Below, one piece after another: positions 10,319 through 20,000 of a stretch of DNA of 20,000 nt. This DNA is from Candidatus Tectimicrobiota bacterium. GTDB lineage: Bacteria > JACPUC01. The notes under the pieces were generated by a model, which had not been told where the DNA came from, searched no databases, and saw nothing but the letters and a program-made list of their open reading frames with translations. The stretch is from contig JACPUC010000019.1 of NCBI GenBank assembly GCA_016192455.1, forward strand, positions 297,285 to 317,284, in the 5' to 3' direction. Positions within the stretch are counted from its first letter, which is position 1. Every line of letters begins with the position of its first letter. Both the position numbers and the translations under genes were made by a program.

Positions 10319-10566
10319 GCTCGCGAGCTTTCTTCTGCAAGAGGATGCCGTCGTGAGATCGCGGGCGTGATGCTGCGTTGAACGCCGGAGCTCCGCTAAC
10401 CGGGGCTGGGCTGTCGGAGGTCTCGGAACAGTCCCTCCACGTGCCGCTGTGGCGGCTCACACTTCTTTGCCAGGAGTCGAAGCCGCGGCGGCGGACGGCG
10501 GCTGGCCAGCGCGGGCATGCTGCCATAAAAAAACGCCGCGCAAGCACGCTGCGAGGCGCTTCCACC

Positions 10567-10595
10567 TTGACGCGCGAGATAGATTGCTCTAAGAT
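10567..10595 (+). promoter_or_regulatory. sigma70 promoter of the tRNA
   Basis: TTGACG (10567-10572), 17 nt, then TAAGAT (10590-10595), about 24 nt upstream of the tRNA. Confidence 0.6.
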
Positions 10596-10618
10596 AATCT
10601 TGCAACAGAGAGGCATGG

Positions 10619-10695
<77 letters not shown>

Positions 10696-10701
10696 ATACA
10701 A

Positions 10702-11817
10702 TCAATGGGTTGCGGCCTCGCCGTGACCCATTTTTTCATGGATTGTCCGAAAATTGTCCGAATTCTGTCCGCGCAGGTAGTTCTGCATGCGCCTCATTGC
10801 GTCGCGGAGATCACGCTCGTTGGTGATGTCGTAGCGGTCGAAAACGCTCCGCGTGCGGTGGCCGCTTACCGCCATCGCCACCGTTTCCGGCACCCCTGCC
10901 CGCACCATGTTGCGTACCGCCGTACGGCGCAGGTCATGGAAGAGCTTTCCCGGCACCCCAGCCTCCCGGCAGGCGTTCCGCCAGGATTTGCGAAACTCGC
11001 GGATCATGCGACCGTCGCAATGAAAGACGTATTCTGCTAGGAACGTGGTCTTCCCCGCCTTCACTCGTCGCGCTGCCCAACACCGCTCAATCAACTCCCA
11101 GAGGTCCCCCTCAAGGCTGAGGGTGCGTCCCCGCTCATTCTTGGACGCCTCAGGCTTCAGGTGCGCCACACGACCCCCACGGTCAATATCAGACCATGTA
11201 AGCGAGGCGATCTCCCCTTTCCGCCAGCCAGTCAGGTAGGCGAAACGGGTGAAATCCCGCAGGTAGGCAGGGAGTTCTCTCACCACTGGCTCTAATTCGG
11301 CATGCTCAAAATACCCTTGCCTCGCATTCCTTTCGGGAAGCCTTCGTATCCGCGGGCAAGAAGAGACGCGGCCCCGCTCCATCGCAAGCTTGAACGCCTG
11401 CCCCAGAAGCTGCGTCTCCCGGTTGATGGTAGCAGGCTTTCGCCCAGCCTCTAACCGCTGAAGGATATAGCGGTCAACGTCCTCCGCCGTCACATCTACG
11501 ACCCGTCGTTGCCCGAAGCTGTCTTCAATAGCGCGGAGATGTGACCGAAACTGTGCTGCACCCTTCCCACCTTGCAGCTCGTAATGCTGCCGAAGAGCTT
11601 GAAACAACTCACTCACCAGAATGCGCTCTTGCTCAGGGCCTATGAACTGTCGAGCACCAAGCTGATCTGCTGCCACCTCGCGGAGCCTCTTGCGCAGGAA
11701 GCGCTCCGCCTCCCTACGATCCTCCGAGCCGCTGCTCTCGCGGTATTCCTGGCCACGGAGGCAGTAGGAAATCCACCACCTCCGGCCTCGTCGGAATACC
11801 CGGCCTTGACCATGCAT
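10702..11817 (-). CDS. Tyrosine recombinase / phage integrase
   Basis: N-terminal arm-binding-like RWWISY..G..YRESSG, KPATINRE, catalytic R (TGWRKGEI), K (SKN), HDLRR, SGHRT..VFDRY. Confidence 0.95.
   Translation of the reverse strand: MHGQGRVFRRGRRWWISYCLRGQEYRESSGSEDRREAERFLRKRLREVAADQLGARQFIGPEQERILVSELFQALRQHYELQGGKGAAQFRSHLRAIEDSFGQRRVVDVTAEDVDRYILQRLEAGRKPATINRETQLLGQAFKLAMERGRVSSCPRIRRLPERNARQGYFEHAELEPVVRELPAYLRDFTRFAYLTGWRKGEIASLTWSDIDRGGRVAHLKPEASKNERGRTLSLEGDLWELIERCWAARRVKAGKTTFLAEYVFHCDGRMIREFRKSWRNACREAGVPGKLFHDLRRTAVRNMVRAGVPETVAMAVSGHRTRSVFDRYDITNERDLRDAMRRMQNYLRGQNSDNFRTIHEKMGHGEAATH
10704..10736 (+). terminator. Intrinsic terminator downstream of tRNA-fMet, encoded within the integrase 3' end
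   Basis: 13-bp stem AATGGGTTGCGGC/GCCGTGACCCATT (two G-U pairs), CTC loop, followed by a T-run. Confidence 0.7.
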
Positions 11818-11820
11818 ATG

Positions 11821-12171
11821 TCACGCCCTCCTCTGCTGCTGGCGAATGAAGCGTTCGATCCCCAGGGTCGAGAACCGAACGAACTTCCCCTGCCGCACCA
11901 CGAACGGCAGGCTACGGGTACGACGGTAGAGCCAGTCCACCGTCACACACAATTTCGCCGCAGCGTCTTCCACAGTCAAGAGGCGGTCCTCGGCAGGGCC
12001 TCCCACGGCATGCCTGCCATCGGCCTGGAGCGCCAGCAGCCGGCCCATGAGCGCGCCCTGGGCGACGGTGAGCTTCGCCAGCAGCGCTGTTGCCGCTTCC
12101 GGCGACAAGGCAGTGACCTGTGCTGGGTCGCCTGCGATGTCATCGAGAGATGGAACCGGTACAAGACCCAT
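11821..12171 (-). CDS. Excisionase-like helix-turn-helix protein
   Basis: RLLTVEDAAAKLCVTVDWLYRR...LPFVVRQGKFVRF..IERFI is an HTH_17/Xis-type motif; lies immediately upstream of the integrase. Confidence 0.8.
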   Translation of the reverse strand: MGLVPVPSLDDIAGDPAQVTALSPEAATALLAKLTVAQGALMGRLLALQADGRHAVGGPAEDRLLTVEDAAAKLCVTVDWLYRRTRSLPFVVRQGKFVRFSTLGIERFIRQQQRRA

Positions 12172-12338
12172 CTGTTACCGCTCAGGCCCTCTGGACAAAG
12201 GAGGGCCATGATTTCACCCTACGCGATCTACATGAACAACCTGCAAGCTCTCATCGAAACGTCCATGTACAGAACCTACTCTTGGGATGAGCGTTTACCA
12301 GGAGGCTTACCCCCGATCTACGTGAGCCGTGCAGCTTG

Positions 12339-12758
12339 TTACTCACTGCCTTCGGGTTCAATCTCCTCGATAGTGCCATCGACGTGCTTTTTTGCAGAGT
12401 GAACGATCCTCAGAGCCTCTGCCCCAAGGTTGGCGGCGCCAAGCCTGCATACCTCGTTGGCGGTGTAAGTCACCAAGCCCTCAGGCACCAACCGCTTCGC
12501 CTCCTCCTTAGCCACCAGCGCCACCTTCTCGTTGAGCACCCCGGACCAGATGATGACGACGCTCTTCCCGGCGCGAAAGCGCTCCTCCGCCTCCTCTACC
12601 TGGAGTCGTCGCACGATCTCCTGCTTGTGCTCGCGCAGGGTGGCGCGCAGCTCTTCAGAGACGGCGCCGGGCGGCGCATTGAGGCGGAGTTTCTCCCCAC
12701 ACACCTCATACTCCACGCCCAGGTCGCGCAGTCTTGCCAACAGTTCGGTCGCCATCAT
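12339..12758 (-). CDS. Small protein with TubC-N-like N-terminal domain, coupled to the primase
   Basis: ELLARLRDLGVEYEVCGEKLRLNAPPGAVSEELRATLREHKQEI resembles the TubC N-terminal docking fold. Its start overlaps the primase stop (12755-12758). Confidence 0.65.
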   Translation of the reverse strand: MMATELLARLRDLGVEYEVCGEKLRLNAPPGAVSEELRATLREHKQEIVRRLQVEEAEERFRAGKSVVIIWSGVLNEKVALVAKEEAKRLVPEGLVTYTANEVCRLGAANLGAEALRIVHSAKKHVDGTIEEIEPEGSE

Positions 12759-15199
12759 ATCTCGATGATCTCCCGATCCTCTTCATCGTTCTCTGCGTCC
12801 TCCCCGTCTCCGCCGTGAGTCCTCAAGGTTAAGTCCCGCAAATCGCCGTCACCTCTGTCACCGCCGTCATCGTCTTGTGAATTCAATGAGTTACAGGTGA
12901 CACCCTGGAGTGCCGGTGACTGGGCGCAGGCCGTCTCTACCGCCTCGTCGTCACCTTCGCCGTCACCGCTAAGTTGTTGATGTTTTTGGCGCTTTGTTGA
13001 GTCGTGCTGCCGGGTGACGCGGGTGACGGCGTTTCGCGCCTCTTTGCGAATAATGATGCTACGGCGCTTCTTCGAGCGATCCCACTCAACGCTGATCCCC
13101 ACTTGGCGCAAGCCAGGGGCGAGACGCCGCAGGCGCTGCGCAAGGGTGCTGGCATTTCTTGGCCAGCCGCGCCGCTTGGTAAGCGATTCTTTCCCCTGAT
13201 CCCCCAGCATCCCTTCGAGGGCGCCCAGAAGCTCGGTCGCCATCCCGAGCCATTCGGAATCCCGTTTTTCCATAAACTCCTCAAGCACCAGAGCGACCTC
13301 ATCGACCTGCAGCAGCTCCTCCACGGCACCTCTCCGGTTGCCCTCGTATGCTTGGAGGAATTCGCCGCTCTTCCAGGGCAGGGCTTCCTCGGCTGCGGCG
13401 ACCCACCGGGCCACGTCTGCCATGCGCGGTAACCGTGTCAGGTGGGTGCTTCGCAGATTCCGCAACGCGGCGCACACTGCATCGAGGAGCGCGCCCAGTA
13501 TTCTGGGCTGTGCCTGTTCGAACCCAAGCCACAGCTCGTCTTCCGTGGTCCGGGCCGTATCGCTCAGATGCGGGAGTTCGACGAAGATCGATCGGTCGGC
13601 AAGGTCCTGACGCTGGGCCGGGTTGTTGATGGCATTGAGCAGCACCGGCCGAGTCGCCTCGAAGATGATCTCGTCGGCATCGGTGTAAAGCTTGCGCGTC
13701 CCCAACCCGCCGCCTGTCGCCATGCGGCAGAGCGCGTCCGAGAGCCACGGGGCGATGGTTCCCAGGTTGTCGAACCCTAGAATCCATGCCTGGGATGCCG
13801 ACACCACCAGATCTCGCTCTTCGCGGGGTGCGGAGCGAGCTGGCGCGGCGTTTGGGTCCACGAGCGCACGCAGCAACCTGGCGGTGGTCGATTTGGCGCT
13901 TCCCTGCTCACCCGTGAGGACGAGCACTGGATATGGTCCCATGCCCCTCAACACCGCCAGGAGCCAGCCGACCACTAGCCTGAAGTCATCCTCGCCTGAG
14001 AGGTTCAAGAATCCCCGCAGCTCCATGATGGAGCCGCCACGAAGCGGGGCTAGAAGAGGACGCATCCCGCCACCGCGGGTGAACTTCACCGGAGGACTCG
14101 TGACCAGCCGCCACCCCTCCGCGGTGAGTTCGACGGCCCGCCATTCTGCATCGCAGAGGTCCAAGTAGATGACGCCCTCTTTCCGCGCAACGCGCAGGAA
14201 GACGGACTCCTCGCGCCCCTCGAACTGGGCCTGCGCCTCCAGCGTGGCCAACGCCTCCTGAAGCGCGGCGGCATTCGCCGACCTTCGCCCTTGGCTGTAA
14301 AACCGGTACCGCAACCACCGCTCAAAACCGTTACTTCGGATCAGCCACGTTTCTCGGTGCTCGCCGCTCGATAGGCTGGCGTAGGCCCTGCCATCCTTGT
14401 CGTGGAAGAGGTTTGCCTCGCGCGCCAGCTCGACGAGCATCTGAGCCTGGGATGGGTTGCCGCCCTGGTCCTTCGTCTCTTCTTCAGACGCCTCATCCTG
14501 AGCATCAGTGATCCTCGCACCGTGTGCAGCTTGCGGCATCTTTGGATCGAAGGGGGCCGTTGCCTCAATGAGCTGGAGCAGGTCATCCACAGTTGCCCCC
14601 TGGTTGAGGAAGTCGCTGACATCTCCCCCGGTTGCTTCCAGCGGCAGCAAGACGTTCTTCACTTCCGCGGCAACACGTCTCAGCGCCTTGCAGACCTTGA
14701 CCGCCCCAACTTGGCCCTTGTCATCTGGGTCATTCACGTCGTAGATCACCACCACCCTCTTACCAACAAATTGCGGCGTCCACCCCTTCTTCCACGTGCC
14801 GGCTCCACCTGTGCTCGTCACGGCAGGTAGCCCGACATCCAGGAGCTTCATCCAATCCCATTCCCCCTCACATAGAATTAGGCGATCATGCGAAGTATCA
14901 CCCAAAAGGAACGCCTTCGAGCCCCGGCTGAAGCTCCAGCGTCTGGCCTTGTCCTTCTCCCTGAACCGGTAGCAGTGCTGGCTCTTGCCGTCGGAAGAGG
15001 TGAAAGCGATGCATGGTTCGCCCCCGATGGTGCCACTGCGCGCGCCCGCTTGCTTCAACGTCTCCAGTTGGTAGCTCTTGCCGTTTCGGTGCAACCACTC
15101 AAGCGCTTCCCCGTCGAGCTGACGCAGACGCTCCACCTGCCAGCCTGAAGTGGTCCGCTGGCTGTAATAGCTGCGGGATTCTTTAGCCGTGAGACTCAT
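12755..15199 (-). CDS. TOPRIM primase fused to P-loop ATPase/helicase (element replication protein)
   Basis: TOPRIM LILCEGEWD...VVVIYDVND..G...GGDVSDF, Walker A GEQGSAKST, Walker B-like ILGFDN, RKLYTD. RBS AGGTAGG upstream. Confidence 0.85.
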   Translation of the reverse strand: MSLTAKESRSYYSQRTTSGWQVERLRQLDGEALEWLHRNGKSYQLETLKQAGARSGTIGGEPCIAFTSSDGKSQHCYRFREKDKARRWSFSRGSKAFLLGDTSHDRLILCEGEWDWMKLLDVGLPAVTSTGGAGTWKKGWTPQFVGKRVVVIYDVNDPDDKGQVGAVKVCKALRRVAAEVKNVLLPLEATGGDVSDFLNQGATVDDLLQLIEATAPFDPKMPQAAHGARITDAQDEASEEETKDQGGNPSQAQMLVELAREANLFHDKDGRAYASLSSGEHRETWLIRSNGFERWLRYRFYSQGRRSANAAALQEALATLEAQAQFEGREESVFLRVARKEGVIYLDLCDAEWRAVELTAEGWRLVTSPPVKFTRGGGMRPLLAPLRGGSIMELRGFLNLSGEDDFRLVVGWLLAVLRGMGPYPVLVLTGEQGSAKSTTARLLRALVDPNAAPARSAPREERDLVVSASQAWILGFDNLGTIAPWLSDALCRMATGGGLGTRKLYTDADEIIFEATRPVLLNAINNPAQRQDLADRSIFVELPHLSDTARTTEDELWLGFEQAQPRILGALLDAVCAALRNLRSTHLTRLPRMADVARWVAAAEEALPWKSGEFLQAYEGNRRGAVEELLQVDEVALVLEEFMEKRDSEWLGMATELLGALEGMLGDQGKESLTKRRGWPRNASTLAQRLRRLAPGLRQVGISVEWDRSKKRRSIIIRKEARNAVTRVTRQHDSTKRQKHQQLSGDGEGDDEAVETACAQSPALQGVTCNSLNSQDDDGGDRGDGDLRDLTLRTHGGDGEDAENDEEDREIIEI
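12848..13027. repeat. GTCACC/GGTGAC iteron-like array within the primase 3' end (candidate origin)
   Basis: GTCAYC at 12848, 12857, 12866, 12950 and 12962; inverted GGTGAC at 12896, 12915, 13013 and 13022; the groups flank two AT-rich segments. Confidence 0.6.
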
Positions 15200-15216
15200 C
15201 GCGCCTACCTACTTCA

Positions 15217-15345
15217 AAACAAAAAACCCCAATGCAGTGGCCCGGCAGGAACGGGACCGCATTGGGGCTTAACACTCGCGAGTGTCGTCCTTGGTGCCCT
15301 TACTGGCCACCCGTTCCTGCGCCGCCCCAGGCGGCACGGGCATAA
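15217..15345 (-). ncRNA. Structured leader of the primase operon: terminator plus C4/CI-like antisense element
   Basis: Stem CCCCAATGC(15227-35)/GCATTGGGG(15259-67) with a U-tail on the minus strand; its loop region 15245-15255 is perfectly complementary to 15310-15320; further hairpins at 15271-15286 and 15319-15337. Confidence 0.55.
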
Positions 15346-15418
15346 CACCCTTTCATCTATGGAGTTTCAAAAATAGGAGGGCACTCTTATTTTTGAAAAG
15401 GCGGGCAGGAACGCTAAG

Positions 15419-16456
15419 TTATTGATTTCCATGGCCTAGCGTGTCAAGTTTCTGGGGGTCAAATAATTGTTCACGTTGCGGTCCTTCCAATTGTTCTAGA
15501 TGTGCAATTAACTCTGGGCATGGCTCCTGGCAATCGCCACCGTGGTCCGGATGCTTTGGGCACGAAGGGCAAAGCTCTTGTTGATCACGGAGCTTCGGCT
15601 GGACTTCACGGGGGTCACGCCGCTGGTATGGTTTTCCGTGAATGAGCTCATAGGCCTTTGCAAAATTAGCATGAACCCATTGAAGAGACTCTCCCGGGAA
15701 TTCTCGATCAACTATTTGCTGATAGGTCAGACGCTCCTCCCTACGCAAATCCCAAATCTTAAAAGCTTTCTGAGCTTCTTCAAAGCGCGTCCTAATATCC
15801 TGTATCTTTATATCGTAAGACTTCATGATCGTTTGCATCTTCTCAATTATCGTTCCAATACGATCTAATAAAACCTTTACAGGAACACGTAGATTAACTT
15901 TAAGAGTTATTTTTGTATGAGGGTAGATATTACGTTTGATCAACTTATTATAACGTCCCTCGCGCATAAGGTTCACTGCTTTTTGCTTTTCTTCTAATGT
16001 TTTGTACTCAAAAAATGCATTCGATATTTCGCTATTCATTGCATCATATTCTTCACAAGTGATGGCTCCATCTAACCAATATTCATTCACATCAAGATGC
16101 AACAATACACCCGGAATTCGTTCCTCAATATTCCAGTCAAGAGATGGAAACACTGGACAGAAAAGACCCCACTTCGACTTAAAGGATTCCATCATACAGG
16201 CCGTAGGTGTCATTTCCGGATAGAATTCATATTCACTCCAATATGGGATATATTCATGATTCTCATCAACATACGGTGAAGGCGGCTGTGGTTTTCCGTT
16301 CATCTGCAGAACCCAACGATAGTGGTATTCATCATTTTCCTTTAGCCATTCCAAGGATTGCTCAAATTCCCAAATATATCTTGGGTTTCTCCTTATCGCT
16401 TGCCAACGAATCCATGCCCTTTTAGCGTACCTATCAGCTTGCTCAGGTATCTCCAT
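15419..16456 (-). CDS. AT-rich hypothetical protein, putative transcriptional regulator (DUF6499/DUF2285-like motifs, Cys-rich tail)
   Basis: 345-aa ORF in an AT-rich tract (15901-15960 has 18/60 G+C). Motifs WQAIRRNPRY, KWGL, and an HTH-like IWDLRREERLTYQQIVDREFP; C-terminal CPSC..H...C..PC. Confidence 0.6.
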   Translation of the reverse strand: MEIPEQADRYAKRAWIRWQAIRRNPRYIWEFEQSLEWLKENDEYHYRWVLQMNGKPQPPSPYVDENHEYIPYWSEYEFYPEMTPTACMMESFKSKWGLFCPVFPSLDWNIEERIPGVLLHLDVNEYWLDGAITCEEYDAMNSEISNAFFEYKTLEEKQKAVNLMREGRYNKLIKRNIYPHTKITLKVNLRVPVKVLLDRIGTIIEKMQTIMKSYDIKIQDIRTRFEEAQKAFKIWDLRREERLTYQQIVDREFPGESLQWVHANFAKAYELIHGKPYQRRDPREVQPKLRDQQELCPSCPKHPDHGGDCQEPCPELIAHLEQLEGPQREQLFDPQKLDTLGHGNQ

Positions 16457-16866
16457 CGGCTCACCCTCTCAGCAACGCCCAATATCACGGAAATGTTACT
16501 GAAAATCAAAAAATCCGCCCGCCAACCAATTTAATCCCTTCGCCACCCCGCGGGGGAGGACCTCCCCCTACCCCCCCTGGGGTGCCTGCTCCAAGCCTGC
16601 CGTTTCTCGCCCCACCTTCCCGCGCACGCACCACCTCATCACATCACTCTGATAGCAACACCCCACCATCGCCGGAGCATTCTCCCACCTCAGCACACGC
16701 GCCGTCCATCGCCCCCTCGCTATCAGAATGATAGCAGCATCACCTTGCTTGCGCTGCACCTCCGCCACCTCATCCTACCACGCTCCCACGACTCCGCAGC
16801 ATCATTTTGATCGCAGCGCTCCCGCCCCCTGCTTCTCTTCCGCACCCTCTTTCTTCCACTTCGATA

Positions 16867-16895
16867 TTGACAGCTAGTCCATGCGCTACTATATT
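16867..16895 (+). promoter_or_regulatory. sigma70 promoter of ardC
   Basis: TTGACA (16867-16872), 17 nt, then TATATT (16890-16895). Confidence 0.7.
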
Positions 16896-17012
16896 ACCAT
16901 CATCAAGGGCAGGAGAGAAGGAAGCAGCATACACCGCGCTCCTTCTACTCCGCGCAGGCATTTCTTTGCCTGCTCACATGACAACTAGTGCAACTCAGGA
17001 AGGGAGCACGAC

Positions 17013-17828
17013 ATGAGCAGGAGTCAGGAGCACGTCAGGCAAACCTTGCAGACCGTCTTGCAGAAGTTCGAGTCAGGCGACATCGCCCCCGCCGTCGCCG
17101 CCGCCGTCTTCCCGCCGCCTGATCTCCCGATGAATCGCTGGTCTCTCATGAATCGCACCCTCTGCTTCATCGCCGGCACCTCTGACGCCCGCGGCTTCCG
17201 CCAATGGAAGCAGGCAGGCCGCCACGTCAAGAAAGGCGCGCGCGCAATCCACATCCTCGCACCGCGCACCATCAAGGTCGAGAACGACGAGACGGGCGAA
17301 GAAGAGCACCGTCTCATCGGTTTCAACGCTGTTCCGGTCTTCCGCGTCGAGGATACCGACGGCTCACCCCTCACCTATCAAGAGCCGGAGGTGCCGGCAC
17401 ACCCCTTGCTCGACGTGGCGCACGCCTGGGGAGTCAGCATCAGCGCTGAGTTCTGCCAGGGGAAGTACCTGGGATACTTCCGCCCCGCCACGCGGCACAT
17501 CGTCCTTGCCTCGCCCCAAGCCACCGTCTTCTTCCACGAGCTCGCCCACGCCGCCCACGAGCGCGTCCTGCGGGAGCGCGGCGACACCCTCAAGGGTGGC
17601 CAGGACTGGAAGCAGGAGATCGTGGCGGAGCTTTCCGCCACCGTCCTGGGCTTGCTCTACGGCGTCGCCTGGGAGCGCAGCAGCGGCGCCGCCTATCGCT
17701 ACATCGACTCCTACGCGCGCAAAGCGAAGAAAGACGTGCTGAGAGGCTGCGCCGCAGTGCTCGCCGACGTGGAAAAGGTGCTCACCCTCATCGTGCAGAC
17801 AAGCACCGTGAGCAGCATCGTCGCCTGA
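17013..17828 (+). CDS. ardC: ArdC-like antirestriction protein (ssDNA-binding N-domain plus zincin-like metallopeptidase)
   Basis: RGFRQWKQAGRHVKKGARAIHILAP, VFRVEDTDG, HELAH (HExxH), QEIVAEL, YIDSY. RBS GGGAG upstream. Confidence 0.82.
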   Translation: MSRSQEHVRQTLQTVLQKFESGDIAPAVAAAVFPPPDLPMNRWSLMNRTLCFIAGTSDARGFRQWKQAGRHVKKGARAIHILAPRTIKVENDETGEEEHRLIGFNAVPVFRVEDTDGSPLTYQEPEVPAHPLLDVAHAWGVSISAEFCQGKYLGYFRPATRHIVLASPQATVFFHELAHAAHERVLRERGDTLKGGQDWKQEIVAELSATVLGLLYGVAWERSSGAAYRYIDSYARKAKKDVLRGCAAVLADVEKVLTLIVQTSTVSSIVA

Positions 17829-17833
17829 CGCGG

Positions 17834-17856
17834 AGGGGCATTCATTTGCCCCTTTA
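17834..17856 (+). terminator. Hairpin/terminator after ardC
   Basis: AGGGGCA-ttcatt-TGCCCCT followed by a short T-rich tail. Confidence 0.5.
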
Positions 17857-17857
17857 C

Positions 17858-17885
17858 TTGACATCTAGCACATGCAGCTTATAAT
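17858..17885 (+). promoter_or_regulatory. Consensus sigma70 promoter
   Basis: TTGACA (17858-17863), 16 nt, then TATAAT (17880-17885). Confidence 0.75.
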
Positions 17886-17898
17886 GAAGGAGAGCAGC

Positions 17899-18321
17899 GT
17901 GTTGAACCTCTACCAAGCCATCCTCGCCGAAGGGGGAATCAGGAGCTATCGCAACGGCCACCTCAAAGAAGAGTTGCAAGTTATCCCGCTCTGTCTGCGC
18001 CGGCGCCGCGGCTTGCCCCTCGATGAGATGATCGACACCCTGCGCGCCTACGGCTTCTGGTTCGAGTCGGAATCTGATCTGCTCGACGCCATTGCCAGGT
18101 ACAGGAAGACCGCCGAAGACCTGCCCCCCAAGCCGGAGCGCGAGTTCCCGACGCTGCGTGAGGTGCAGCGCCACCACTTGCAGACGGCGCTCGACAAGAC
18201 CGGCGGCAATATCAGGCAGGCCGCCCAGCTCCTCGACGTGCCTTACGTCTCGATGCAGCGGCATGTGAAGCGGTATCGGCTGCGCACGGCAAGCAACAGC
18301 CACGTCGAGGCGCCGTTCTAA
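17899..18321 (+). CDS. Protein with uncharacterised N-domain and C-terminal Fis-type HTH
   Basis: TLREVQRHHLQTALDKTGGNIRQAAQLLDV is an HTH_8/Fis motif. GTG 17899 after AAGGAG is preferred over 17872, which lies inside the promoter. Confidence 0.72.
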   Translation: MLNLYQAILAEGGIRSYRNGHLKEELQVIPLCLRRRRGLPLDEMIDTLRAYGFWFESESDLLDAIARYRKTAEDLPPKPEREFPTLREVQRHHLQTALDKTGGNIRQAAQLLDVPYVSMQRHVKRYRLRTASNSHVEAPF

Positions 18322-18332
18322 GGGGGGAAGCC

Positions 18333-18560
18333 ATGAGGAAGCAGCACACCATGCCTACCGCCAGGCAGGTCGTCCACCAGCTCCGCCTGGACGGCGAAGG
18401 CGAAGACCTCTACGTCGTGGACCGGAAGGGGCTCATTCATGAGCCTCGCCCACGTGATCTGCAACTCACCCTCTTCGAGGAAGGCCATGCGACGAACACG
18501 CCCGCGCTGGGAGAACCGCATCCGCGAAATCCGCCAAAGCAAGCAGATGACCCAACGTGA
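18333..18560 (+). CDS. Small hypothetical protein (75 aa)
   Basis: ATG 12 nt after the previous stop, preceded by GGGGGAAG; GC3-rich codons; overlaps the XRE gene. Confidence 0.45.
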   Translation: MRKQHTMPTARQVVHQLRLDGEGEDLYVVDRKGLIHEPRPRDLQLTLFEEGHATNTPALGEPHPRNPPKQADDPT

Positions 18561-18714
18561 CCTCGCCCGCATCCTGGGCTTCACGGAGTCCTACGTCTCG
18601 CACCTTGAGTCCGGCAGGGCCGCGCCGACCGCGCCAACGCTCCAGAAGCTCGCCGCCGCCCTCGGCGTCAAGGTCGATGACCTCTTCGTGAAGAGCAAGG
18701 GCGCCAAGTCCTGA
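18487..18714 (+). CDS. XRE-family HTH transcriptional regulator
   Basis: NRIREIRQSKQMTQRDLARILGFTESYVSHLESGRAAPTAPTLQKLAAALGVKVDDLF. ATG 18487 follows GAGGAAGG. Confidence 0.9.
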   Translation: MRRTRPRWENRIREIRQSKQMTQRDLARILGFTESYVSHLESGRAAPTAPTLQKLAAALGVKVDDLFVKSKGAKS

Positions 18715-19103
18715 GCCGAAGCCGCCAAGCTACCGTTCCCTCTCGCTGCATGGTGGTGGCAAGAGGAAAGCCGTTCCAGCAGCCGGTCTGTTTCCTGTCA
18801 TCTTTAGAAGACAGGTAACTCCGACAGCGCGTTGTGCGAGGTTGAATTCCCTGCCCTTCCGGCGTCGAACCCTGGCAATACTGACAGGTAACACTTCGCC
18901 GCCGCCCGGCATTCATGAGGGTTTACATTCCAAAGCAGGGCGGGCGAGTAATTCGCTGCTCCACGCGACGCAAGGAACCAATGCGCTCCCCTCCCCGCGA
19001 GCTGCGCAGCAGTTCGCGTAAACGGGGTGCGCGAGGGGACACGGTTCCCTCGCAGAATTACGTAATGGAATTCAAGGAGACACGACACTCGGAGGAGCAG
19101 AAC

Positions 19104-19733
19104 ATGCCACAAGGGGAGAAACACGCGGCAATCTACCTGCGCGTCTCCAGCGCGGGCCAAAAGCACGCCAGCCAGGAGCCGGAGCTGAAGCGCTGGGTGG
19201 AGAAGGCGGACGAGCCGGTGACCTGGTTCCGCGACACCTTCACCGGGCGCACCATGGACCGCCCCGGCTTCGAGAAGCTCATGGAAGCCGTCCGTTCCGG
19301 CGGCGTCTCGAAGGTCGTCATCTGGCGGCTTGACCGCCTGGGCCGCACCGCCAAGGGCCTCACCCAGCTCTTCGCCGAGCTGCGCCAGCGCAAGATCGAC
19401 CTCGTCAGCCTGCGCGACGGCTTCACCCTCTCCACCGCCGCCGGACGCCTCACCGCCAACATCCTCGCCTCCATGGCCGAGTTCGAGACCGAGGTGCGCG
19501 CCGAGCGCGTGCGCGCCGGCCAAGCCGCCGCCAAGGCCAAGGGCAAGACCTGGGGCGGCAGCCGCACCGGCTGGCACTACCGAAGAACCCAGGCGAAGAT
19601 ACCCGTTATCCTCGACCTCCTCGCCAAAGGCGCCCCCAAGGCCCACATCGCCCGCGCCGTCGGCATCTCCCGCAAGACGGTGTACAGCATCCTGGCGCAG
19701 AACGGCGTCAATGGGAATGGGCAGGGCGCGTGA
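19104..19733 (+). CDS. Small serine recombinase (resolvase/invertase) with C-terminal HTH
   Basis: YLRVSS (catalytic Ser), DRPGF, RLDRLGR, AEFE...ERVRAG, IARAVGISRKTVYSIL. ATG 19104 follows GGAGGAG. Confidence 0.93.
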   Translation: MPQGEKHAAIYLRVSSAGQKHASQEPELKRWVEKADEPVTWFRDTFTGRTMDRPGFEKLMEAVRSGGVSKVVIWRLDRLGRTAKGLTQLFAELRQRKIDLVSLRDGFTLSTAAGRLTANILASMAEFETEVRAERVRAGQAAAKAKGKTWGGSRTGWHYRRTQAKIPVILDLLAKGAPKAHIARAVGISRKTVYSILAQNGVNGNGQGA

Positions 19734-19781
19734 AGGTGAACGTTCGCAGTCCGATCCCCGCCCGAACCTGCACCCACCGTC

Positions 19782-20000
19782 GCTTCAATGAGGCCGAGGC
19801 ACTGAGGCCTCGGAAATCTTTCCCCCAGGTGTGGGAGGGGGGGGGTTGCCGCTTCAATGAGGCCGAGGCACTGAGGCCTCGGAAATTTTCTCGGCCTGAT
19901 GATGACGGTAGAGCGGCCGGCAAGGCTTCAATGAGGCCGAGGCACTGAGGCCTCGGAAATTACGTGGGGGTGTCGGCTGTCCCCCCGCGCATGGTGACGC
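19782..20000 (-). CRISPR. CRISPR array with type I-G-like repeat, continuing beyond window
   Basis: Three identical 36-bp repeats GCTTCAATGAGGCCGAGGCACTGAGGCCTCGGAAAT at 19782-19817, 19851-19886 and 19925-19960. Unique spacers of 33 and 38 nt, and probably 38 nt (final GC at 19999-20000 fits a fourth repeat). Internal 7-bp palindrome CCGAGGC/GCCTCGG; the minus strand ends in ATTGAAGC. Confidence 0.95.

Follow-up and report, generated by a model that had tools for sequence, protein, structure and literature searches.

The right-hand half of the DNA analyzed here, a window of 20,000 nucleotides from a Candidatus Tectimicrobiota bacterium (G000:C20:297285-317284), is probably best understood as a plasmid-like element that resides at the initiator tRNA gene (tRNA-fMet) and adjoins the trailer end of a type I-G CRISPR array, with the cas genes beyond the end of the contig. 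Four points are firm: the array is of type I-G, it reads on the minus strand, it turns its trailer end toward the element, and the genome bin holds no type I-G effector. The placement of the cas genes past the contig end is presumptive, and the chances are about evenly balanced between an element whose right boundary lies beyond the CRISPR(-Cas) locus, which then would be cargo of a composite island, and a chromosomal CRISPR locus that is only a neighbor of an element with a lost right attachment site (attR). The source genome is a metagenome bin of 31 contigs that is 88% complete and 2.3% contaminated, and window base 20000, which still belongs to the array, is the last base of its contig C20.

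The array begins 47 nt after the stop codon of a serine recombinase gene and comprises three direct repeats on the minus strand (19782-19818, 19851-19887 and 19925-19963; given as 36-37 nt), two spacers of 32 nt (19819-19850) and 37 nt (19888-19924), and a third spacer on the same strand (19964-20000) that is cut by the contig end. All three repeats match the Rfam family CRISPR-DR16 on the minus strand, with 42.1, 36.7 and 38.6 bits at a gathering score of 35, which bears out the type I-G assignment made in the first-pass annotation. Read on this strand, the repeat opens with a short 5' part that varies, after which come a stem of 7 bp (CCGAGGC/GCCUCGG), the tetranucleotide CCUC, and an 8-nt handle, AUUGAAGC. 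For Csb2, the available part of PMC9638904 describes a type I-G repeat of 36 nt that forms a stem of 7 bp and is cut 4 nt below it, so that an 8-nt handle is left, and the layout of the window repeat (7-bp stem, 4 nt, 8-nt handle) is the same as the one given there. What can be tested of an array is thus all found: at least three repeats of ~36 nt, unique spacers, scores above the DR16 threshold, and the arrangement of hairpin and handle. In the 36-37-nt repeat, the 7-bp hairpin, the 4 nt, the 8-nt handle and the DR16 match, the array resembles known systems of type I-G (formerly I-U), such as that of Thioalkalivibrio sulfidiphilus, as far as the available part of PMC9638904 describes it, and the GSU0051-0054 family that stands behind the NCBIfam models. 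As an observation on the family as a whole, the DR16 stem co-varies across phyla (CCGAGGC/GCCTCGG versus CCGGGGC/GCCCCGG, i.e. A-U to G-C), while the loop is free and the 3' tail, CCTCATTGAAGC, is fixed (loci L023-L147).

The polarity of the array was read from other arrays of the same family. A conserved 20-mer of the repeat was scanned across one genome per species, which gave at least 125 stretches, with flanks available for 80. For the side of the cas genes, the loci were turned to the orientation of the repeats on the window plus strand and searched by tblastn with type I-G proteins of four annotated loci; the count comprises distinct contigs that have three or more repeats and no less than 1.9 kb to their right, and merging six duplicate stretches of four contigs reduced 37 rows to 31. 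Among the matches listed, cas4/cas1 lies on the side that corresponds to the window beyond base 20000 in 29 of the 31 comparable contigs, and on the other side in none. Because of this one-sidedness, the window must show the trailer, i.e. the leader-distal and oldest end of the array, and from this orientation it follows that the visible repeats are not a self-contained mini-array but the trailer of what most likely is a full-size locus. By NCBIfam annotation, Cas3g, Cas8g1, Csb1, Csb2 and Cas4g/Cas1g are present in six of six DR16 loci. The type I-G loci of other genomes thus have Cas3g, Cas8g, Csb1, Csb2 and Cas4/Cas1 beside the array, whereas here no such genes are visible in the assembly, and at the trailer they mostly adjoin ordinary genes, whereas here the trailer adjoins a mobile element.

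In the favored scenario, the element occupies the 3' end of the one initiator tRNA gene that the genome has, the array is transcribed on the minus strand, and its repeat has the form of the substrate that is cleaved by Csb2 in the characterized type I-G system. The leader and, most probably, an operon of cas2, cas4-cas1, csb and cas3g genes would follow just past the contig end, in a region that would have stayed unassembled or unbinned.

The element itself, which extends over positions 10696-19742, is integrative, self-replicating and plasmid-like, judging from its gene content, and it presumably is mobile. On its left stands a tRNA-Met(CAT) gene (10619-10695, plus strand; ARAGORN; Rfam tRNA 66.9 bits) with a GGG/CCC anticodon stem and a 1:72 mismatch, both of which are absent from the two other CAT tRNAs of the genome and which we take to be initiator hallmarks; this gene would form the left attachment side (attL). 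Only 7 nt separate it from the stop codon of a tyrosine integrase gene (10702-11817, minus strand; Pfam Phage_integrase 7e-19; phrog_1 integrase 9.6e-55). The GC content is 0.60-0.64 in the element and 0.66-0.69 in the recombinase region versus 0.67-0.72 in the left flank, where ordinary genes lie left of 10600 (glycogen phosphorylase-like, DUF3891, ComEC, PNP/UDP phosphorylase, class-III aminotransferase, FtsB/DivIC). A tyrosine integrase beside a tRNA gene and a deviating composition (GC 0.60 versus 0.68), the usual marks of a tRNA island, are therefore both found. The reading as a self-replicating, plasmid-like integrative element follows from an 814-aa replicase (12755-15199, minus strand), which joins a Toprim-type primase region (~aa 44-240) to a P-loop helicase region (~aa 250-740). 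It matches DNA primase and primase/helicase families of PHROGs (phrog_6088, phrog_239, phrog_849; 9.4e-11 and 2.1e-9) and, by tblastn, a phage “DNA helicase/primase” (3e-32). In the helicase part, it has 32-44% identity with proteins from a Microbacterium phage and from small Methylobacterium, Methanothrix, Stanieria and Streptomyces plasmids. Its translation contains the motifs CEGE, DVNDPDD (DxD-type) and the loop GEQGSAKST, which we presume to have the functional meaning usually given to them.

A right end of the element was sought by blastn-short of 10561-10760 against all contigs, by aligning the 3' half of the tRNA locally with either strand of 10761-20000, and with a repeat finder. The first-pass annotation had suggested looking for a direct repeat of the tRNA-fMet 3' end as attR, and for the array repeat elsewhere in the genome; neither was found in the assembly. 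No copy of the tRNA 3' end is present in the window (no match of at least 14 nt) or in the 31 contigs, where short matches on C15 and C23 are tRNA-Gly and tRNA-Val genes. With up to 5 mismatches allowed, the DR16 repeat does not recur on any of these contigs, nor does any contig end carry a part of it. The exact 33-nt repeat was found in 0 stretches of metagenome contigs. A likeness to a tRNA T-arm that had been noticed by eye at 19734-19780 was dropped, as its local score of 16 compares with 20-21 in the background elsewhere, and a search of G000 for two loose-end motifs adjoining the tRNA, which came from other organisms, gave no match. A degenerate terminal repeat was also looked for left of 19782, where the best candidate matches 16 of 36 positions, below the background maximum of 22 in the window; this test does not discriminate, because 24 of 43 other DR16 arrays have such a repeat, among the matches listed. 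The attR may lie beyond the contig end.

Several results weigh against this picture of an element beside a type I-G locus that continues past the contig. NCBIfam models of Cas3g, Csb2 and Cas8g1 scored above cut-off nowhere in the 88%-complete assembly, and in a control genome the Csb2 model did recover the protein it is meant for. Twelve type I-G queries from four loci (Cas3g, Cas8g1/Csx17, Csb1, Csb2, Cas4/Cas1, Cas3-extension) were also run by tblastn and found nothing but a generic cas1 on contig C9. Two of the 31 comparable arrays (L044 and L076) have no adjacent cas genes among the matches listed, and an 8.2-Mb Reyranella assembly, which contains another DR16 array (L081, see below), is without cas1, cas3g and csb2. 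Moreover, the visible repeats number only three, and their spacers had no target among phages (E 3-9, i.e. chance), plasmids (repeat matches only), the own genome or the fetched loci, with IMG/VR outside this search. No joint of an excised or empty site was found in the contigs of four sequencing runs of one study. The predicted cas operon is therefore unseen in the assembly, and the array could be an orphan. With regard to the remaining cas genes, repeat-associated mysterious protein (RAMP) and Cas10 genes were not found in the assembly either, and its sole cas genes are cas1-cas2 beside a 7-repeat array on C9. This stretch (C9:121058-123350) is a stand-alone adaptation module of cas1, cas2 and an array of a different 37-nt repeat ending in ATTGAAAC, and the ~18 kb to its left and to its right hold no effector gene.

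The sequencing runs bear on the contig end in two further respects. They were available as contig assemblies, not raw reads, of four runs of one groundwater study, and they contain the pieces 19155-19817, 19537-19764 and 19537-19774 of the window with 0-2 differences, so that the recombinase is linked to the first repeat. That the array was wrongly joined to the contig by assembly or binning might be suspected from the nature of the genome (a metagenome bin with 2.3% contamination, and a contig that ends in a repeat), yet this is highly improbable, as independent assemblies of the four runs reproduce the link. One record of 2651 nt matches 19155-19817 with 2 differences and then continues for ~1990 nt that are unlike the window; as it leaves the window after the first repeat, DNA evidently continues beyond the array. 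The first-pass annotation had also suggested looking for an excised circle among the reads, which did not turn up: the only joints in the run contigs are one that involves the C8 paralogue of the recombinase and three with sides of 21-22 nt. As contigs drop rare forms, a missing excision joint says little. G000 is the sole genome of its phylum among ~200,000 species genomes and originates from the groundwater metagenomes of one study. Its 40 “relatives” share only the domain with it, and a phylum-level search returned G000 alone.

Does the array belong to the element, or does it merely lie beside it? It is conceivable, though tentative, that the type I-G array and its cas operon are cargo inside a composite island with attR past the contig end, and that the element thereby mobilizes an entire adaptive immune system together with an ArdC-like gene. 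In favor of this, attR is found nowhere in the window or the 31 contigs although the integrase, the replicase and the other open reading frames (ORFs) look intact, the stretch from the tRNA to the array is free of host genes, the first repeat follows the recombinase stop codon after only 47 nt, and a copy of the recombinase on C8 (94% identical) likewise borders a low-GC defense cluster. The layout also recurs at the start of a contig of a Reyranella metagenome-assembled genome (MAG; L081, 1-4014), where a DR16 array of at least 10 repeats begins 160 nt into the contig, these 160 nt being AT-rich and leader-like, and where the array trailer is followed after ~1.4 kb by a co-directional, 592-aa helicase relative of the same replicase family (43% identical over aa 251-706). 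As the helicase part of the replicase matched only 1 of 200 other sampled genomes (E<=1e-10; two more matched in the primase part only), this co-occurrence with DR16 is unlikely under a naive null, with the caveat that mobile DNA clusters and that L081 is a single case. Furthermore, type I-G cas genes are missing from both bins, G000 and the Reyranella MAG, as often is the case for mobile DNA. Against an array carried by the element stand the trailer flanks of 33 other DR16 loci (4.2 kb each, 142 ORFs, Pfam E<=1e-6), in which, among the matches listed, neither Phage_integrase nor Resolvase was found; these flanks hold mostly ordinary or unknown genes, with transposases in 4 loci and type III cas genes in 2. 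The recombinase has a host-like GC content of 0.66-0.69, a host repetitive extragenic palindromic (REP) element lies between the XRE-type regulator and the recombinase, and 42 metagenome loci plus one viral contig with the replicase family, all on short contigs, contain no CRISPR repeats. Two of these 42 loci have a tRNA-Met 5.4 kb downstream, and their far ends lie off the contig. Another locus, L068 (1-8522), has a DR16 array at the contig start, followed by insertion sequence transposases, by P4-type integrases (two in tandem) and by a fragment of a TrwC relaxase; the integrases and the TrwC fragment are 5-8.5 kb away from the array, and although this is another array trailer that borders mobile DNA, we list it among the counterpoints to carriage by the element.

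It is just as tentatively that a chromosomal type I-G locus can be placed beside tRNA-fMet, with the element integrated between the two and attR decayed or deleted thereafter, e.g. when the recombinase module arrived. DR16 arrays mostly have an ordinary chromosomal context, both the change in GC and the REP element (18992-19088) point to older or host-like DNA at the recombinase end, and the recombinase is a separately duplicated unit, whose homology to C8 stops 9 nt past its stop codon. On the other side, no trace of a tRNA fragment is recognizable (the best local score in 19690-19800 is 16 versus 20-21 in the background); the genes of the element look intact, and a contig with the chromosomal cas genes would be expected in an 88%-complete bin but is not there. 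The balance between these two placements remains about even: the array runs off the contig, the genome set searched offers no kin of this genome, and attR is unseen. Quite unlikely, in comparison, is an orphan array without cas genes in cis on a satellite-like element that uses a Cascade of the host or of another element. No type I-G cas gene was found in the assembly, L081 apparently is an orphan DR16 array that has the same replicase family next to it and whose genome shows no cas1, cas3g or csb2, and the available part of PMC7145637 describes isolated arrays on plasmids that are compatible with chromosomal cas genes, all of which would suit such an arrangement. However, the borrowing of a host type I-G Cascade in trans, as the first-pass annotation had envisaged, is unsupported, because the assembled 88% of the genome offers no type I-G effector to borrow, nor a RAMP or Cas10 gene; in addition, the cas genes lie on the unseen side in 29 of the 31 comparable arrays among the matches listed, the full size of the array, which is cut by the contig end, is not visible, and satellite hallmark genes were not found with Pfam and PHROGs. 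A broader idea, which draws on the two cases of this element and the Reyranella MAG and which we regard as rather unlikely, is that a replicase-defined family of integrative plasmid-like replicons repeatedly carries type I-G arrays at the integrase-distal side in hosts without type I-G cas genes, so that orphan arrays or whole systems, paired with an ArdC-like gene, would move around and act against other elements.

Returning to the plasmid-like element beside a type I-G locus, how does it compare with known mobile elements? The first-pass annotation had described an integrase, an excisionase, a primase-helicase, ArdC, an XRE regulator and a resolvase that run into the CRISPR array without a housekeeping gene or a second att copy in between. 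All these genes are present, the excisionase as a weak assignment (24.1 bits), and neither a housekeeping gene nor an att copy was found from the tRNA to 19782. Its view of a satellite-like element holds in so far as integrase, AlpA-like and primase-helicase genes occur without virion genes; as a true satellite the element is not convincing, with three of five core functions of phage-inducible chromosomal islands (PICI) and a small-plasmid replicase. With PICI/P4-like satellites, according to the SatelliteFinder definitions in the available part of PMC10085698, it shares the tRNA-side integrase, the primase/replicase and the lack of virion genes, perhaps also an AlpA-type helix-turn-helix (HTH) protein, of which it has a weakly scoring candidate, and furthermore an accessory region at the integrase-distal end, the place in which such satellites carry defense genes. 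In contrast to such satellites, capsid-morphogenesis, small-terminase and psu/delta/sid genes were not found among the 12 ORFs of the window that were searched in Pfam, PHROGs and NCBIfam, where ORFs without a match could hide one, and the replicase belongs to a small-plasmid family. Relaxase, oriT and type IV secretion genes were likewise not found among the window ORFs (Pfam, NCBIfam), and the ArdC-like gene is the only one of this kind. Genes of the ArdC type are more typical of plasmids.

According to the available part of PMC7145637, CRISPR-Cas loci contain 65% of arrays, another 12% being orphans; CRISPR-Cas is nearly absent from prophages, and 3% of plasmids carry systems or isolated arrays, which often are compatible with chromosomal cas genes. 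The plasmids described there with isolated arrays or whole systems resemble the present case in that a mobile replicon adjoins or carries an array, and Methylocalor, Methylomagnum, Cereibacter and Azospirillum have plasmids with DR16-like arrays as well; the difference is that here the replicon is integrated at a tRNA gene and that no compatible chromosomal cas cluster is seen. Among plasmids with the same replicase, plasmid 3 of Methylobacterium bullatum, a 20-kb plasmid of Methylobacterium sp. 4-46 and pH6Ac of Methanothrix harundinacea are 36-44% identical in the helicase part, and M. bullatum plasmid 3 also has a Hin-type invertase. Apart from a weak recombinase match, no other gene of the element is common to these plasmids at E<=1e-3, and their annotation shows neither an integrase nor an array. 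Virus-borne mini-arrays and CRISPR-Cas systems on integrative and conjugative elements and Vibrio islands are known, and no publication title that we found, at title level only and thus without proof of absence, describes a type I-G array on a satellite or on a tRNA island. If the locus does lie inside the element, a compact, tRNA-integrating replicon would move a complete type I-G immunity along with an anti-restriction gene, and would do so in a phylum of which the collection searched contains one genome. The few integrative elements with CRISPR-Cas would gain a further case, and the idea that defense systems are spread by satellite-like islands would gain by it too. If the locus is merely a neighbor, this would be the ordinary case of a mobile element that sits by a CRISPR locus of the chromosome, in a MAG that is fragmented. 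The array's type, strand and polarity are fixed in both cases, and the decisive gap amounts to 2-12 kb of missing sequence.

The remaining genes of the element include four features that the first-pass annotation had left unlisted: a 139-aa ORF, a 345-aa ORFan, a Fis-type HTH protein and a REP-like repeat. Next to the integrase lies the gene of the tentatively assigned HTH_17 (AlpA/excisionase-like) protein (11821-12171, minus strand; Pfam 4.2e-5, 24.1 bits, below the cut-off of 27; phrog_66 excisionase/regulator 6.6e-4), followed by the 139-aa protein with a TubC_N-like N-terminus (12339-12758, minus strand; Pfam TubC_N 2.6e-12), which has no match in PHROGs, NCBIfam or PADLOC. The TubC docking-domain match of this protein comprises its first 50 residues, and the domain otherwise comes from assembly lines of non-ribosomal peptide synthetases and polyketide synthases. 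Beyond the replicase, the 345-aa ORFan (15419-16456, minus strand; GC ~0.40) is a cargo gene without relatives: no family match was obtained in Pfam, PHROGs, NCBIfam or PADLOC, a search of 5.8 bn proteins retrieved the query alone, and comparisons of fold and features gave nothing usable, with atlas scores <0.9. With ~40% GC in a genome of 60-70% GC, it has the appearance of very recent foreign cargo.

Further to the right, three genes are transcribed from the plus strand. The ArdC-like anti-restriction protein (17013-17828; ArdcN 26.4 bits, above cut-off; phrog_7245 anti-restriction 1.7e-18) combines a single-stranded DNA-binding N domain with an HExxH zincin domain, in which the motif reads HELAH and the Pfam MPTase-PolyVal match is weak. 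It is followed by the Fis-type HTH protein (17872-18321; Pfam HTH_8 5.6e-9) and the XRE/Cro-type regulator (18439-18714; Pfam HTH_3 7.5e-18). Between the latter and the recombinase, just upstream of the recombinase gene and inside the element, lies the dispersed repeat of the REP or miniature inverted-repeat transposable element type (18992-19088), a double hairpin (fold -40.8 kcal/mol) with 94 blastn matches on 22 of the 31 contigs. The small serine recombinase, a resolvase/invertase with a C-terminal HTH (ORF 18915-19733, plus strand; Pfam Resolvase 5.4e-38; phrog_125 DNA invertase 2.6e-51), probably starts near 19080. Its copy at C8:12310-12955 is 94% identical in nucleotides, and the homology is limited to 19097-19742. 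A stretch of the window with small ORFs (16501-16832; ORFs 16568-16768 and 16770-16961, both minus strand) is 73-80% identical by blastn to C8:13073-13317, and this counterpart sits upstream of the second resolvase copy. The start of that contig (C8:1-15400) is a low-GC defense cluster of an SNF2 helicase, DUF4391, GmrSD_N, an N6/N4 methylase, a Res-like nuclease and a HEPN/MNT pair, bordered by the 94% recombinase copy and then by glutamate dehydrogenase and tRNA-SeC genes. A third, partial copy of the recombinase lies near the end of C6 (G000:C6:220114-220314), with 69% identity over 67 residues and 77% at the nucleotide level.

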